Assembly: GCA_015067305.1 (NCBI GenBank)
Contig: SVMT01000001.1
Location: forward strand, 28,749-92,748
DNA: 64,000 nt
Direction of reading: 5' to 3'
DNA from: Oscillospiraceae bacterium
GTDB taxonomy: Bacteria > Bacillota > Clostridia > Oscillospirales > UBA644
Every line of letters starts with the position of its first letter. Within the stretch, counting starts at the first letter, position 1. Both the position numbers and the translations under genes were made by a program. Shown here in pieces: positions 3,154 to 29,327 of the stretch. The notes under the pieces are model-generated. The model saw nothing but the letters and a program-made list of their open reading frames with translations, was not told the origin of the DNA and made no database searches.

Positions 3154-4545
3154 CTAAAATTCGCAACGCTTTTCAATATATGCTCTGAGATCCTCGATCT
3201 TGATTCTTTCCTGAGCCATTGTGTCACGGTCACGGATAGTTACGCAGCCGTCATTTTCGCTGTCAAAGTCGTAAGTAATGCAGAAAGGTGTACCGATTTC
3301 GTCCTGTCTTCTGTATCTCTTACCGATAGAACCTGCATCGTCGAATTCAACATTGAAATATTTTCTGAGTTCGTCGAAAACAACGCCTGCTTTATCGTTG
3401 AGTTTCTTGGAAAGGGGAAGAACAGCCGCCTTAACGGGAGCAAGTGCGGGGTGGAAGTGCATAACTGTTCTGATGTCGGGTTTTTCGGGGTCTGTGGAAA
3501 TATTTTCCTCGTCGTAAGCTTCGCAAAGGAACGCAAGAACAACACGGTCAGCACCGAGAGAGGGTTCGATTACGTAAGGAATATAGTGTTCGTTTGTTTC
3601 CTGGTCAAAATATTCCATATTTTCACCGGAAGTATTCTGATGCTGAGTAAGGTCGAAGTCAGTTCTGTCAGCAATACCCCAAAGTTCGCCCCAACCGAAG
3701 GGGAATACGAATTCGAAGTCTGTTGTAGCGTTGGAATAGTGGGAAAGTTCTTCGGGATCGTGGTCACGGAGTCTGAGGTTTTCTTCCTTGATTCCGAGAC
3801 TCAAAAGCCAATTTTTGCAGAAATCTTTCCAGTATGCGAACCATTCAAGGTCTGTACCGGGTTTGCAGAAGAATTCAAGTTCCATCTGTTCGAATTCACG
3901 TGTTCTGAATGTGAAGTTACCCGGTGTGATCTCATTTCTGAAGCTCTTACCGATCTGACCGATACCAAAGGGAAGCTTCTTTCTTGTTGTACGCTGAACG
4001 TTTTTGAAGTTTACGAAAATACCCTGAGCTGTTTCTGGACGGAGATAGATCTCAGATTTGCTGTCTTCAGTAACGCCCTGGAATGTTTTGAACATAAGGT
4101 TGAATTTACGGATATCTGTGAAATCTTCAGCGCCGCATTCGGGACATTTAACATGGTTTTCTTTGATGTACTGAGCCATCTGTTCGTTGGACCAACCGTT
4201 GCAAACTACGCCGAGATCTTCGAGGATCTTATCTGCTCTGTGTCTTGTTTTGCAAGCTTTACAGTCCATAAGGGGGTCACTAAAACCGCCAACGTGACCG
4301 GAAGCCACCCATGTCTTGGGGTTCATGAGGATAGCGCAGTCAAGACCTACGTTATATTCGGATTCACGGACAAATTTTTTCCACCAAGCGTTTTTTACGT
4401 TGTTTTTCAGTTCAACGCCGAGAGGGCCGTAGTCCCATGTATTGGAAAGACCGCCGTAAATTTCAGAGCCCGCAAAGATGAAACCTCTGTTTTTGCAAAG
4501 TGCGGTTACTTTCTCCATTGTTTTTTCATTATTCTTCATTTGCAT
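3154..4545 (-). CDS. glyQS: glycine--tRNA ligase (homodimeric class II)
   Basis: 463-aa ORF containing [34 protein letters not shown]. The likely real start is ATG 4539 (AGAGGT 7 nt upstream). It overlaps the gyrA stop. Confidence 0.95.
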
Positions 4546-21865: not shown

Positions 21866-23455
21866 ATGAAAGCTTGTATTATACAGCCGCCATACGGTCG
21901 GGAAACGTCATTTTCCGATGAATTTTTTGAGTTTAAGCTGAAAATGCTTGACGAATGTACCGAAGAACTTGACATTATCGTGCTTCCTGAGTACAGCGAC
22001 GTACCATGCGCTACTGAAAATCTTGAAGATACACTGTTCTGGCATGAAAAATATGCGAAAAAACTCCATGAAAAGTGCAAAAGTACAGCAAAAAGATGTA
22101 ATTCTCTCGTCTTTGTCAATGCTTTGAGCAAGGAAAACAGCGGTTACAGAAATACTACTTTCGCTTACGGCAGAAACGGCGAACTGTTGGGAAAATACTT
22201 CAAAAAACACCTTCCGCCCCTTGAACGTGAAGTCCTGAATCTGGATTCCGATTACACTTTTGAGCCGTCCGAGCCGTTTATTCTGGAGATCGAGGGACTC
22301 AGGTACGCTTTTTTGACTTGCTACGACTTCTATTTTTATGAATCTTTTGCAAATATTGCGCGAAATAATGTGGATATCATCATCGGCTGCTCCCTCCAGC
22401 GAAGCGACTACCACGACGCTATCGAGATCATGTGCCGATTTTTGGCGTACAATACCAACGCCTACGTTTTGCGCAGTTCCGTGAGCTTCGATGAAAACAG
22501 CGAAATTTGCGGCGCAAGTATGGCGGTTTCGCCTTACGGCAAGGTCATTGCGAATATGAAAGGGCGTTTCGGCAAGGAAATCGTTGAATTTGACCCAACG
22601 GACAAGCATTTCAAGCCTGCAGGATTCGGAAATCCGCCTGCGGCACACCATGAATACATCGAATACGGCAGAAAACCCTGGCAATATCGTGTTGGCGGCT
22701 CTTCGACCGTGCCTTTTGAGACTGAAATGAAGTACCCACGCATCTGCGCGCACCGAGGTTTCAGCACCGTTGCCCCCGAAAATACAATGCCCGCATTCGG
22801 TGCCGCCATCGGAATGGGCTCTCAGGAGATCGAATTTGACCTTTGGCCCACCAAGGACGGAGAGATCGTTTCCTGCCACGACCAGACTTTGGAACGAGTC
22901 AGCGATGGCGAGGGTAAAATAACGGAAAAAACATATGATGAGCTGAAAAACCTTGATTTCGGCGCTAAATTCGGCGAAAAATTCTCAGGTCTGCGTATAG
23001 TAAAATTCGAAGAAATTCTGAAAAAATTCGGCGGTCAGACCATAATGAATATCCACATCAAGCCCACAGGCAAGAATTACGACAGAAAAATTATGGAAAA
23101 TATCGTAGGTCTTATCCGCAAATACGACTGCGAGCGCCACGTGTATTTCATGCTTGAAGTTGACGAATACATTCCCATGTTCAAGGAATTTGCTCCGAAA
23201 ATTCCCGTTTGCGTAGGTCATGACAGCGACAGACCCTGGGAGATCGTTGACCGAGCTATCAAGTACGGTGCAGAAAAAGTCCAGCTTTTCAAGCCGTTTT
23301 TCAATGAGGAAATGATCAAAAAAGCCCATGAACACGGCATTATTTGCAATGTCTTCTGGGCAGACGACCCCGACGAGGCTCGCCGCTACATCGACATGGG
23401 CATCGACACGATCCTGACAAACGAGTATAACCTTGTTTCTCAGATCCTGAAATGA
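21866..23455 (+). CDS. fusion protein: carbon-nitrogen hydrolase domain + glycerophosphodiester phosphodiesterase domain
   Basis: 529-aa ORF. The N-terminal half resembles nitrilase-superfamily proteins (IVLPEYS..., LTCYDFYF). The C-terminal half has GDPD motifs ICAHRGFSTVAPENTMPAF and EIEFDLWPTKDGEIVSCHD. Confidence 0.7.
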   Translation: MKACIIQPPYGRETSFSDEFFEFKLKMLDECTEELDIIVLPEYSDVPCATENLEDTLFWHEKYAKKLHEKCKSTAKRCNSLVFVNALSKENSGYRNTTFAYGRNGELLGKYFKKHLPPLEREVLNLDSDYTFEPSEPFILEIEGLRYAFLTCYDFYFYESFANIARNNVDIIIGCSLQRSDYHDAIEIMCRFLAYNTNAYVLRSSVSFDENSEICGASMAVSPYGKVIANMKGRFGKEIVEFDPTDKHFKPAGFGNPPAAHHEYIEYGRKPWQYRVGGSSTVPFETEMKYPRICAHRGFSTVAPENTMPAFGAAIGMGSQEIEFDLWPTKDGEIVSCHDQTLERVSDGEGKITEKTYDELKNLDFGAKFGEKFSGLRIVKFEEILKKFGGQTIMNIHIKPTGKNYDRKIMENIVGLIRKYDCERHVYFMLEVDEYIPMFKEFAPKIPVCVGHDSDRPWEIVDRAIKYGAEKVQLFKPFFNEEMIKKAHEHGIICNVFWADDPDEARRYIDMGIDTILTNEYNLVSQILK

Positions 23456-25250: not shown

Positions 25251-25994
25251 TTAAACCCTAATTTCTTTAATTCCCTTTAGAATCTGTTCCTTTGCCTTGA
25301 TTGCCGCTTCTTGTGAAGTCTGTGGCACCCCGTCCAATGGGTAAGAAATTCCAAGTTCTGCGTATTTGTGAACTCCAAGGGTGTGGTATGGCAGTACATC
25401 CAGCGTTTTCACAGATTTCAAACCCCCGATGAACCGCCCTAGCGCACGCAGATCCTCCGCTTCGTCCGTCCAATTCGGCACTACCACGTGTCTGATGGTC
25501 ATTTTTACACCCTTTTCGCTGACAAATTTCGCAAAATCAAGCACATTTTCATTGCTCATGCCTGTCAGCGCCTTATGTTTTTCGGGGTCAATATGCTTGA
25601 TATCAAGCATCACAAGATCGGTAAATTTGAGCAATTTCTCTGTTTTTTGCAAATTTTCGCTGTTGAATCTGTTGAAAACTATTCCCGAAGTGTCCAAACA
25701 AGTATGAATTCCCGTTTTTTTCGCCTTTTGGAACAGCTCCGTCAGAAAATCTATTTGCAAAAGAGGCTCTCCACCCGTCGCGGTTATGCCCCCTTTGGAA
25801 TAAAACGCCTTATTTTTATTATAAAGCTCTAAAATTTCCTCCGCAGACATCTCCGTTCCGTCGCCGATCTTCCATGTTTCCGGGTTGTGGCAGAATTTAC
25901 AGCGCAAAGGACAGCCCTGAAAAAAGACTACAAGTCTTATCCCGGGGCCGTCCACTGTTCCGAAACTTTCTGTTTGCCTGATGTATCCGTTCAT
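25251..25994 (-). CDS. pflA: pyruvate formate-lyase activating enzyme (radical SAM)
   Basis: 247-aa ORF with GCPLRCKFCHNPETW (CxxxCxxC) and GGITATGGEPL. Confidence 0.92.
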   Translation of the reverse strand: MNGYIRQTESFGTVDGPGIRLVVFFQGCPLRCKFCHNPETWKIGDGTEMSAEEILELYNKNKAFYSKGGITATGGEPLLQIDFLTELFQKAKKTGIHTCLDTSGIVFNRFNSENLQKTEKLLKFTDLVMLDIKHIDPEKHKALTGMSNENVLDFAKFVSEKGVKMTIRHVVVPNWTDEAEDLRALGRFIGGLKSVKTLDVLPYHTLGVHKYAELGISYPLDGVPQTSQEAAIKAKEQILKGIKEIRV

Positions 25995-26020: not shown

Positions 26021-26263
26021 TCAGATGCTGTCGTGGAAAGTTCTCGCAATGACTTCATCCTGCTGTTCTTTGGTCAGTTTTATGAAATTTACCGCATAGC
26101 CGCTGACACGAACTGTCAACTGCGGATATTTTTCAGGGTGTTTCTGCGCGTCAAGAAGAGTTTCCTTTGTGAAAACATTGACATTCAGATGGTGTCCGCC
26201 TTTTTGAACATAGCCGTCCAACAGTGAAACAAGGTTATCTATCTGATCTTTTGTTGCATCCAT
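26021..26263 (-). CDS. stand-alone glycyl-radical domain (C-terminal piece of formate acetyltransferase; GrcA-like)
   Basis: 80-aa ORF: ...[55 protein letters not shown]. Contains the RVSGYAV glycyl-radical motif. Confidence 0.85.
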
Positions 26264-26278
26264 TTTTTTTACCGTCCT

Positions 26279-28399
26279 TTATACATTATGGTCGTTTTCG
26301 TCAATATCCAGTCCCTCGAAAAGGGTGGGGGACATACAAGATCCATCCACACAGCCCAGATCCAAATCAAGGTCACTCATGAAGATCTTGTCATCCTTGC
26401 CCAGCGCACCGGGAATTATGGAGAATGTATTTGAAATACCGTCCTGCGCGTCGAGGAACGAAAGCTTTGAAACGGAAGCCAATGAAGCTACCGCACCGTG
26501 TGTGTCACGTCTGTGCATGGGGTTCGCACCCGGTGCAAAAGGTTCGCCTGCTTTTCTGCCGTCGGGAGTTGAACCCGTCGCCTTGCCGTAAACCACGTTT
26601 GAAGTGATAGTCAAGATCGAAGTCGTGGGCACACCGTCTCTGTAAGTGTGATTTTTGCGGATATGTTCCATGAAAATATGGACGATATCCCTTGCTATCT
26701 TATCAACTCTGTCATCATCGTTTCCGTATTTGGGGAAGTCTCCCTTAACTTCATAGTCCACAGCGAGACCCGTTTCGTCTCTGATGACCTTAACTTTTGC
26801 ATATTTTATAGCCGAAAGTGAGTCCGCTACAACGGAAAGACCTGCAATACCTGTTGCAAACCAGCGCTTGACATCCTTGTCGTGGAGCGCCATCTGTAGT
26901 TTTTCGTAGCAGTATTTATCGTGCATGTAGTGGATAACATTCAGCGTATTTACATAAACTTCCGCAAGCCAGCGCATCATAGCGTCATATTTGTGCATAA
27001 CTTCGTCGTAATCAAGATATTCGGAAGTGATGGGCGTATATTCGGGACCGACCTGCTTGCGTGAAACCTCGTCCACACCGCCGTTTATTGCGTAAAGCAA
27101 ACATTTTGCAAGGTTTGCTCTCGCGCCGAAGAACTGCATTTCCTTACCTATCTTCATTGACGAAACGCAACAAGCGATAGCGTAGTCGTCGCCACGTGTA
27201 ATACGCATCATGTCGTCGTTTTCGTACTGGAGAGACGATGTCTCTATGGAAATTTTCGCACAGTAGCGCTTGAAGTTTTCGGGAAGTCTCGTTGACCAGA
27301 GGACTGTAAGGTTCGGTTCAGGTGCCGAGCCGAGATTTTCCAATGTATGTATATATCTATAAGTCATTTTTGTGACCAGATGTCTGCCGTCAACCAGCAT
27401 ACCTGCCAAAGATTCCGTTACCCACTGGGGGTCACCTGAGAAAAGCTGATTGTATTCGGGTGTTCTTGCAAATTTAACCAGACGGAGCTTCATGATGAAA
27501 TGGTCAACCATTTCCTGAATTTCCGATTCCGTAAATGTTCCGTTTGCAAGGTCTCTTTCAGCGTAAATGTCAAGGAAAGTTGCAGTTCTGCCCAATGACA
27601 TTGCCGCACCGTTCTGCTCTTTTATTGCGCCGAGATAACCGAAATAAAGCCACTGGATAGCTTCCTGAGTGTTTCTTGCAGGAAGCGAAATATCATAACC
27701 GTAGCTCTTCGCCATTGCTTTCAGCTGATGTAAAGCACGTATCTGTTCCGAAAGCTCTTCTCTGTCGCGGATAATTTCCTCATACATGGTGGAGCGAGTT
27801 GTCTGTTTCTGCTCTTCTTTATCCTCAATAAGTCTGTCCACGCCGTAAAGCGCAACACGTCTGTAGTCGCCGATAATTCTTCCTCGGCCGTAAGCATCGG
27901 GAAGACCTGTGATAATATGACTGCTTCTGCAAGCTCTCATTTCAGGTGTATAAACATCAAAAACCCCTGCGTTATGTGTTTTTCTGTGAGTTTTGAAAAA
28001 TTCGCTGATTTCGGGATCCACCGTATAACCGTTATCTGAGCAAGCCTTTTCCGCCATTCTGATACCGCCGTAGGGCATCAGTGCGCGCTTGAAAGGCTTG
28101 TCCGTCTGGAAACCGACGATCTTTTCCTTTGATTTATCCAAATAGCCCGGACCGTGGGACGTGATCGTTGAGATCACTTTCGTATCCATGTCCAGAACGC
28201 CGCCTTTTTCGCGTTCCTGTTTTGAAAGCTCAAGAACCTGCTCCCAAAGGTCTATGGTATTCTGCGTAGGACCCTCAAGGAACTTCTCGTCGCCGTCATA
28301 AGGCGTATAGTTATGGTTGATAAAACTTCTTAAATTTATTTCTCTTGCCCAGGTTCCTTTTTCGAACCCTTCCCAACCTTCATAATGTCTGTCAATCAT
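26279..28399 (-). CDS. pflB: formate acetyltransferase (pyruvate formate-lyase) core, lacking the glycyl-radical domain
   Basis: Contains the adjacent active-site cysteines in YAIACCVS, and [19 protein letters not shown]. It ends after ALGKDD plus a 36-aa acidic tail. Start set at ATG 28399 (GGAG 8 nt upstream); the ORF track extends to 28429. Confidence 0.9.
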
Positions 28400-28450
28400 T
28401 GGTAACACTCCAAATCCTATGGGAAACATTGACCCATTCTATCTACTAAT

Positions 28451-28479
28451 ATTATAGCACAAAATTCAAAGAAATACAA
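28451..28479 (-). promoter_or_regulatory. pflB promoter (extended -10)
   Basis: Minus strand reads TTGTAT, 17 nt, TATAAT preceded by TGTGC. It is part of a ~60-nt module also found inverted at 30609-30668. Confidence 0.6.
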
Positions 28480-28523
28480 GAGGTAAAACAGTACATTTTA
28501 GTGCTAAATTATGGAGAGATAGG

Positions 28524-28600
28524 GATTAGGTCATAGGCCTCAGGGGTTAGGCCTTAGGCCATAGGGTTTAGGTATCAGGTATCAGGTATTAGGTGTTAGG
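28524..28600. repeat. heptad array, TTAGG sense, 11 units
   Basis: GATTAGG TCATAGG CCTCAGG GGTTAGG CCTTAGG CCATAGG GTTTAGG TATCAGG TATCAGG TATTAGG TGTTAGG. Exact 7-nt register throughout. Confidence 0.92.
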
Positions 28601-28676
28601 TACATTTACCGATATGCTGAAACCAATCATTCCGTTTTTAAGTTTCGAATTTTTTCTGAATTCGAGGAGATCAATA

Positions 28677-28717: not shown

Positions 28718-28978
28718 GTGATGAAAGTGTCAAAATGGGAAAAGCTTCTTTCCAGAATAAAAAATCTTGATAAAAACATGAGATTTGCGGAGTTGAAAAA
28801 GATTCTTGAAAGCTACGGTTATGAAATGCGAAGTCCTTCGGGAGGAAGCAGCCATTGCACTTTCCGAAAAAAAGGACGAAATCCAATCACAATCCCAATG
28901 CATGAACCGATAAAAACTGTATATATTCTTATGGTAAAAGAAATAATTGAAATGGAGGAAAATAATGAAAACTCTTGA
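28718..28978 (+). CDS. hicA: HicA-family mRNA interferase toxin
   Basis: ~85-aa ORF: ...LKKILESYGYEMRSPSGGSSHCTFRKKGRNPITIPMHEPIKTVYILMVKEII. Overlaps the downstream antitoxin gene. Exact start (28718/28721/28727) is uncertain. Confidence 0.8.
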   Translation: MMKVSKWEKLLSRIKNLDKNMRFAELKKILESYGYEMRSPSGGSSHCTFRKKGRNPITIPMHEPIKTVYILMVKEIIEMEENNENS

Positions 28979-29327
28979 TTTTTATATGAATCTTCCTTAT
29001 AAAATGGAGATAATCCCCGATAGTATTGAAGGCGGCTATGTTGTAAAGTTCCCCGAACTTCCAGGTTGCTTGACTTGTTGCAGTTCGATGTCCGATATTG
29101 CTGCTGTTTCTACGGATTGTAAGCGCCAGTGGCTTCTTGCCGCAATGGAGGACGGTTCCGAGATCCCCGAACCAACATCTGCAGACGAATTTTCAGGTCA
29201 GTTCAAACTCCGTCTGCCCAAATCACTCCATAAAACACTTTCGGAAAAATCAAAAGAGGAAGGTGTCAGCATGAATCAATATTGCGTATATCTGCTGACA
29301 AAAAATAATTCCCTTTATACTAAATAG
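28965..29327 (+). CDS. hicB: HicB-family antitoxin with C-terminal RHH-like DNA-binding tail
   Basis: From ATG 28965 (GGAGG upstream): MKTLDFYMNLPYKMEIIPDSIEGGYVVKFPELPGCLTC...FKLRLPKSLHKTLSEKSKEEGVSMNQY. Confidence 0.85.
   Translation: MKTLDFYMNLPYKMEIIPDSIEGGYVVKFPELPGCLTCCSSMSDIAAVSTDCKRQWLLAAMEDGSEIPEPTSADEFSGQFKLRLPKSLHKTLSEKSKEEGVSMNQYCVYLLTKNNSLYTK

Follow-up and report, generated by a model that had tools for sequence, protein, structure and literature searches.

A three-gene operon predicted to encode a two-chain pyruvate formate-lyase with a separate GrcA3-type radical subunit

A 64,000-nucleotide (nt) stretch from an Oscillospiraceae bacterium (GenBank assembly GCA_015067305.1, contig SVMT01000001.1, positions 28,749 to 92,748, hereafter the window) carries a pyruvate formate-lyase (PFL) that is divided between two open reading frames (ORFs). 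We propose, with a probability of about 0.8, that these two genes and the adjacent pflA constitute a three-gene operon (core, grcA3, pflA) for an obligately two-chain PFL. Many fermenting anaerobes have PFL as their central enzyme of pyruvate cleavage, and it is the textbook example of a glycyl radical enzyme (GRE). To our knowledge, drawings always show it as a single chain, with GrcA/YfiD presented as a spare part for emergencies. In the proposed mechanism, a core of 706 amino acids (aa) would bring the substrate sites and Cys410/Cys411 and would end near residue ~680 of Escherichia coli PflB, and an 80-aa GrcA3 chain, made from its own start codon, would fill in what the core is without. 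PflA would abstract a hydrogen atom of Gly55, the docked small chain would hand the radical to the core cysteines, and the complex would turn pyruvate and coenzyme A (CoA) into acetyl-CoA and formate. The assembly of core with GrcA3 and its activation by PflA are what we infer here.

The genes lie on the minus strand in the 5' to 3' order 706-aa PFL core, TAA, 15 nt, 80-aa ORF and pflA, the last starting 26 nt past the end of the 80-aa ORF. The parts of the locus, in window coordinates, are as follows.

26279..28399, minus strand: PFL catalytic core, 706 aa plus TAA (TIGR01255, Pfam, PflB alignment)
27167..27172, minus strand: catalytic Cys410-Cys411 in AIACCVSS, equivalent to E. coli C418/C419 (translation and alignment)
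26282..26389, minus strand: acidic 36-aa tail at the core C-terminus, conserved in 44 of the 75 split loci compared, with a ratio of nonsynonymous to synonymous change (pN/pS) of 0.272
26306..26353, minus strand: Cys-loop motif C-x2-G-x-C-x2-P-T-L-F-E-G-L-D within the tail (alignment and hhalign)
26279-26281, minus strand: TAA stop of the core
26264..26281, minus strand: TAA and 15-nt spacer, AGGACGGTAAAAAAA; AAGGA overlaps the stop and ends 11 nt before the ATG
26021..26263, minus strand: 80-aa glycyl-radical subunit of GrcA3 type, ATG at 26263, TGA at 26021-26023
26099..26101, minus strand: codon of Gly55 in RVSGYAV, the predicted radical site, equivalent to E. coli G734 (alignment)
25251..25994, minus strand: pflA, radical S-adenosylmethionine PFL-activating enzyme, 247 aa (TIGR02493, Pfam Radical_SAM and Fer4_12)

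An initial annotation, made from the letters of the window, had described the large PFL ORF, the TAA, the 15 nt and the 80-aa radical ORF. Its coordinates are correct and the two pieces proved complementary by hidden Markov model comparison, but its junction string was one A short; the string read from the sequence is TAAAGGACGGTAAAAAAAATG. It also made no mention of the reading frame that the two ORFs share.

The core matched the PFL model TIGR01255 over positions 2-670 of 744 with 1095.7 bits (cut-off 994.2), and core and 80-aa ORF together reached 1184.8 bits. It comprises the PFL-like domain and the first half of Gly_radical in Pfam terms and aligns to residues 10-685 of E. coli PflB (1H16), so that it is without the last ~75 residues of canonical PFL, namely strand beta-10, the glycine loop and the C-terminal helix. 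The RVSGYAV glycyl radical loop is not on this polypeptide but is carried by the separate 80-aa ORF, which matched TIGR01255 at positions 664-743 with 98.8 bits (64 bits against PFL2-type models) and aligns to PflB 683-758 and to YfiD 68-126. The two alignments to PflB therefore place the break at about E. coli residue 680. What the small chain contributes is the counterpart of the PflB 683-693 helix, followed by barrel strand beta-10 (HHLNVNV), the loop with the radical glycine (RVSG55YAV) and the C-terminal helix. Gly55 is invariant in the alignment of its relatives. Residues 4-80 correspond to positions 2-78 of 78 in the curated model NF038360, 'autonomous glycyl radical cofactor GrcA3', which the protein passes with 167.8 bits (cut-off 158); the small chain is therefore already a named family. 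By the same token, its description as GrcA/YfiD-like was right at the family level. It fails the classical GrcA/YfiD model TIGR04365 (93.6 bits, cut-off 170) and is without the disordered ~60-residue N-terminal half of YfiD, its own N-terminus aligning to PflB from 683 onward. The adjacent gene is indeed pflA, as had been stated, its product scoring 290.8 bits against TIGR02493 (cut-off 231.75).

In the public assembly collection, 65 index blocks contain the exact 80-aa protein, and 24 of the contigs with it were examined. Four operon copies from different samples were compared with the window. All four have 706/707 aa, 15 nt, 80 aa and then pflA, within varying outer gene contexts. One copy is identical to the window, two differ from it at 112-113 of 3149 nt (3.6%) with stop, spacer and start unchanged, and one contains an in-frame 3-nt indel by which the tail gains a Cys codon; the tail changes by in-frame indels only. 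Over 23 tail-type loci, pN/pS was 0.116 for the core (last 314 codons), 0.068 for the small ORF and 0.272 for the tail, at a pS of 0.76-0.81, where synonymous sites are saturated. Core and small ORF are under strong purifying selection, and the relaxed constraint that the initial annotation named as grounds against the split was not borne out. These results bear on the suspicion of an assembly or indel artefact, or of a recently broken pflB pseudogene in which stop and tail are junk and the enzyme is dead. Such a suspicion arises since the stop codon falls within a stretch that is one gene in E. coli, in a genome of metagenome-assembled genome (MAG) type with 63 contigs. We regard it as hardly credible, as the same junction occurs in assemblies from other samples, including strains 3.6% diverged, hundreds of species retain the layout, all three parts (core, tail and small ORF) are under purifying selection despite saturated synonymous change, and the tail varies solely through in-frame indels.

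The split is widespread. More than 8000 protein clusters match the small protein, mostly named 'autonomous glycyl radical cofactor GrcA' by their sources and mostly from Oscillospiraceae, Ruminococcaceae and Clostridia MAGs. With each species represented by one genome, relatives are encoded in at least 593 species genomes. Gene layout was examined for the best 80 of those relatives: 78 are stand-alone ORFs beside a truncated core and two are fused. Across the loci examined, the small ORF always adjoins a core that is cut precisely at the complementary point. By their labels, the carriers belong to Acutalibacteraceae, Oscillospiraceae, Lachnospiraceae, Erysipelotrichaceae, Gastranaerophilales, Spirochaetota and Atopobiaceae; among the Lachnospiraceae are the complete Sellimonas caecigallum JCM 35759 genome and that of a Ruminococcus isolate. 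Within the window's genus, five species including this one have the split PFL, four have a canonical full-length PFL and seven have neither. Such patchiness among close relatives (G001-G015) suggests gain, loss and replacement by transfer.

The small chain appears to be initiated separately from its own start. A tetramer resembling a Shine-Dalgarno (SD) sequence was found at -20 to -4 in 80 of 84 small ORFs, the other four being start-choice errors of the script, and in the window AAGGA lies over the stop, in line with the SD sequence previously judged plausible at the junction. The spacers between core and small ORF range from -17 to 149 nt across loci, and the core stops are TAA (59), TGA (11) and TAG (5). 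The relative frame of the two ORFs is 14/22/14 over 50 two-gene loci, that is, random, and in two species of the window's own genus (G003 and G011) the ORFs are out of frame. Therefore, the in-frame layout of the window, where one TAA and five sense codons separate the ORFs, is coincidental, and read-through is not a conserved mechanism; this argues for separate initiation. Under a recoding explanation, read-through or bypass of the in-frame TAA would yield one PFL chain containing an insert of 42 residues, and the 80-aa ORF would have no separate product. It draws on the shared frame in this genome and on a Treponemataceae MAG (L073, described below), in which a naturally fused relative has a Cys insert within its single chain. 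Given the random frames, the range of spacers, the use of all three stop codons, the out-of-frame relatives in the same genus and the own SD and ATG of nearly all small ORFs, we consider recoding highly improbable.

The split PFL is also the sole PFL in the genomes checked for a second one. The window's genome (2.33 Mb, 63 contigs, 84.7% complete) contains a single locus passing TIGR01255, the split one, so the second intact pflB that might have counted against the proposal was not found within it. Five other hits are PFL2-type genes, each in one open frame of 677-727 aa, which match the PFL model to its last positions (738-743 of 744). In the complete genome of Sellimonas caecigallum and in the Ruminococcus isolate, too, the split PFL is the only one, and none of 41 related genomes has split and full-length PFL together. 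The split PFL as sole PFL is therefore set apart from the spare-part arrangement of E. coli. A classical spare part, in which GrcA3 would mend a full-length PFL from another locus after oxygen has cleaved it, the truncated core next door being incidental, is suggested by the NCBI name 'autonomous glycyl radical cofactor GrcA' of such proteins, by the closeness of the small ORF to YfiD residues 68-126 and by the 15% of the genome that is missing. We find it unlikely, because a full-length PFL was not found in this genome, the complete Sellimonas genome or the Ruminococcus isolate, and the two forms are mutually exclusive in the 41 relatives. The small ORF, moreover, always stands beside a core cut at the complementary position and has neither the ~60-residue disordered N-terminus of YfiD nor a passing GrcA score (93.6 against 170). 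Alternatively, the small chain might be a radical donor or spare part for the five PFL2-like GREs, with the core having a different catalytic role or none. Five further GRE genes are certainly at hand, but each is an uninterrupted frame that reaches positions 738-743 of the PFL model, and the small ORF is far nearer to PFL proper than to the PFL2 type (98.8 against 64 bits). The core, in addition, is a bona fide PFL equivalog with the Cys-Cys pair that only formate lyases have (PMC13450708), and the core-grcA3-pflA linkage is conserved. Service to the other GREs is accordingly judged very unlikely. The initial proposal of a functional two-piece enzyme, as opposed to decay, is thus upheld by the conserved junction, the breadth of the layout, the selection, the own SD sites and the absence of another PFL.

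That PFL can work as two chains is shown by an engineered E. coli pair. Truncated PFL, tPFL(1-695), together with YfiD reached wild-type activity once activated (Andorfer et al. 2021, PMC8683613). The binding of that pair was too weak to measure and its activation 32-fold poorer, good binding and activation of YfiD requiring PFL residues 696-733 and the disordered N-terminus of YfiD (PMC8683613). For the window, the small chain can reasonably be taken as a putative exchangeable radical module. An adaptive rationale, that only the 80-residue chain would have to be replaced once oxygen cleaves the radical site, is attractive, though we would rate its chances slightly short of even.

The 36-aa acidic tail before the TAA had been recognised initially but treated as mere run-on. 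Its presence stands, while comparison of 75 split loci revealed a conserved module with homology to a further protein. In 44 of the 75 loci the core ends, like that of the window, in ALGKDD-x-[IV]F-x-GD[IL][DE][VIL][DE]-LD-C-x2-GAC-x2-PTLFEGLD and an acidic end; the search for relatives sharing both split and tail, proposed at the outset, was thus successful. In the tail alignment both Cys residues are invariant and G, A, P, L and F nearly so. In the strain-level variant with the extra Cys codon (L111, GCA_017409795.1, about 3390-3420), the indel is a 3-nt insertion, and the tail reads DCCVDGAC against GCVDGSC. In 25 loci the core stops after [IV]F-x-GD[IL]D-x-D, and a third ORF of 57-89 aa with its own SD sequence lies in a 190-400-nt gap between core and GrcA3. 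The remaining six loci, including L092 and L072, have neither Cys tail nor third ORF; therefore the Cys-loop module is not universally required by split PFLs.

The N-terminus of the third protein copies the helix and strand of GrcA3, matching NF038360 at positions 2-30 with E values down to 6e-5 and the GrcA3 N-terminus in hhalign with 96% probability (E 4.7e-9, 33 columns). Its C-terminus carries C..AC..P[TN]L..G.D, and the tail profile aligns to this C-terminus with 96.4% (E 1.1e-9, 67% identity). On this homology, the tail would therefore be the Cys-loop module of that protein fused to the core, and the profiles point to a tail that is derived from, or shared with, the third small protein of the sister operons. 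In those operons, the third protein is a separate, putatively 'radical-dead' GrcA3 paralogue, whereas in the window the module is fused to the core. A reading of the Cys loop as a degenerate glycine loop was rejected, as hhalign aligns the N-terminal 33 columns only. Beyond the N-terminal GrcA3 match of the third protein, no family for tail or third protein was found in Pfam, NCBIfam or the PDB, and their PDB profile matches are noise (E above 0.03).

In a tree of the last 432 core residues, midpoint-rooted and with many forks open, the split cores all group in a single clade (100/100), separate from the full-length PFLs found in the same genus. The three-gene forms stand at the base of the split clade, and the window falls within a 27-row clade of tail-type loci only (99/88). 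This topology fits an origin of the tail by fusion. Also inside the split clade is L073 1865-4222, from a Treponemataceae MAG, a single-chain PFL of 786 aa. It has an in-line insert, ALGKDSSIDLASMKNYGNCMSCDTATIMAAPTVAETLANPVQIDNLV, at the place of the tail, stop and start of the split forms, and may represent either a re-fusion or an intermediate.

An AlphaFold2 model of the read-through fusion with TAA set to Q (792 aa, 120-row alignment) adopts a PFL-like fold, with a TM score of 0.75-0.78 to 2PFL and a mean pLDDT of 76.7. In the tail region (654-715) the pLDDT drops below 50, to about 30 in the tail, and the tail is probably flexible. Our leading guess for its role is recruiting, holding or handling the detachable radical chain, by which it might compensate for the contacts whose loss made the engineered E. 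coli pair bind weakly. A further and more speculative idea, to which we give a rather low chance, is that the Cys-loop module is a new GRE element, a tethered thiol pair or plug beside the docking slot. It might gate the exchange of the radical chain or, on oxygen exposure, quench or park the radical or re-reduce the catalytic Cys, the quenching and re-reducing version being modelled by analogy on the C-terminal Cys-pair tail of class I ribonucleotide reductase. If this were true, PFL in a large share of gut anaerobes would be a regulated, repairable multi-chain machine instead of a single polypeptide.

Several points weigh against an obligately two-chain enzyme. The genome is 84.7% complete, and a second PFL may lie in the missing part. 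The two ORFs are in frame in this genome, so that a little TAA read-through product may be made. The fusion model is mediocre (mean pLDDT 76.7) and uninformative on tail and docking, and translation, assembly and activity are predicted from sequence. In addition, since the loss of residues 696-733 weakened the binding and activation of YfiD 32-fold in E. coli, the natural split would need a compensating binding feature.

Two further features precede the core on the minus strand.

28397..28411, minus strand: GGAG Shine-Dalgarno sequence and ATG of the core, GGAG 8 nt ahead of ATG 28399
28451..28479, minus strand: promoter-like site identified by eye, TTGTAT, 17 nt, TATAAT, with TGC directly before the -10

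An upstream in-frame ATG at 28429 would lengthen the core ORF. ATG 28399 was preferred because of the GGAG 8 nt upstream and because gene callers gave 706/707 aa on four other assemblies; relatives of the core begin at the same M.D[RK].YEGW motif. The TTGTAT-17 nt-TGC-TATAAT arrangement is a candidate extended -10 promoter, and the consensus promoter scan missed it because its -35 hexamer matches at 3 of 6 positions only. A terminator scan gave no convincing terminator, and an Rfam search over the whole window gave no match. Just upstream of the promoter region lies a heptad array of about ten repeats (28521-28602), composed of AGGTATC x4.7 and TTAGGCC x5.7 on the plus strand (GATACCT and GGCCTAA on the minus strand), which may be a regulator binding array or a simple repeat. 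Further upstream of the operon, a pair of ORFs of 86 and 126 aa on the plus strand (28718-29327) resembles a HicA/HicB toxin-antitoxin system; on another assembly these genes have matches to Pfam HicA_toxin and HicB, and the pair is missing from the strain variant L112. Elsewhere in the window, a 529-aa ORF on the plus strand (21866-23455) joins a carbon-nitrogen hydrolase (PF00795) to a glycerophosphodiester phosphodiesterase (PF03009), an unusual pairing.

If the proposed reading of the operon is correct, hundreds of gut and rumen species have the radical domain of PFL permanently on a gene of its own, with the split enzyme as their only PFL. Such an enzyme would offer a direct system for studying how a radical domain docks and leaves, how PflA acts on the free versus the bound chain, and whether oxygen damage is met by swapping the 80-residue chain. 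The conserved Cys-loop tail or third protein adds an uncharacterised component. The names that annotation pipelines give to the pieces, 'formate C-acetyltransferase' and 'GrcA', may lead metabolic reconstructions to misread such loci.

Small Cys-containing chains attached to the catalytic subunit close to the radical domain are known from other GREs, namely the beta and gamma subunits of benzylsuccinate synthase (BSS) and the gamma subunit of 4-hydroxyphenylacetate decarboxylase (HPAD), which influence its accessibility and bind [4Fe-4S] clusters through four or more Cys. The tail of the window differs from these subunits in having two Cys only and no detectable sequence similarity to them. 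An identity of the tail as an Fe-S small subunit was rejected, with no Pfam, NCBIfam or PDB match to such subunits for the tail-bearing core or the related small proteins.

The best PDB matches of the window core are two entries named 'Formate acetyltransferase', 38lb_A (739 aa, 1160 bits) and 38la_A (687 aa, 1121 bits). Both are split-type cores: 38lb_A ends in a Cys-bearing tail, and 38la_A ends at SLGKE. Most of 199 aligned residues of 38lb_A are identical to the core of an Atopobium MAG (L102), which it closely matches. The PDB sequence file has no GrcA3-like chain, and neither entry is in the fold library, which covers releases up to 2026-04-08. The presence of split-type cores in the PDB indicates that someone is working on this enzyme; no paper on 38lb/38la was found. 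A 2026 review of GREs mentions spare parts of the YfiD type only (PMC13450708). No paper naming 'GrcA3' or describing a natural split PFL was found, and the literature searched appears to contain no description of the obligate split, the tail or the third protein related to it. The NF038360 family itself names the small chain, and not its truncated partner, the tail or the third protein.

Among the closest systems are the three-gene operons of sister lineages, such as L058, L074 and L046, which encode a core, a Cys-loop protein of ~57-89 aa and GrcA3. They share with it the split-core clade, the GrcA3 chain and the C..AC..PTL.EGLD motif. The window differs from them in having the motif directly on the C-terminus of the core, without the helix-strand part. 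Among characterised systems, E. coli PflB with GrcA/YfiD (PDB 1H16, 6OWR) and Y06I of phage T4 likewise have a small free chain with the RVSGYAV loop. GrcA/YfiD is activated by PflA and completes the PFL active site, and we propose the same for the small chain of the window. In E. coli, however, the spare part stands in when oxygen has cleaved an otherwise intact 760-aa PflB, whereas the core of the window never has a radical domain. GrcA3 also has the PflB 683-693 helix where YfiD has its disordered 60-residue N-terminus, and the window core has a conserved extension and the Cys-loop tail, neither of which is present in E. coli PFL. The engineered tPFL(1-695) resembles the window in its cut before strand beta-10 and its separate radical chain, the natural cut lying ~15 residues earlier, near residue 680. 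The operon would thus represent a natural, evolved counterpart of the tPFL:YfiD complex, which worked poorly as engineered.

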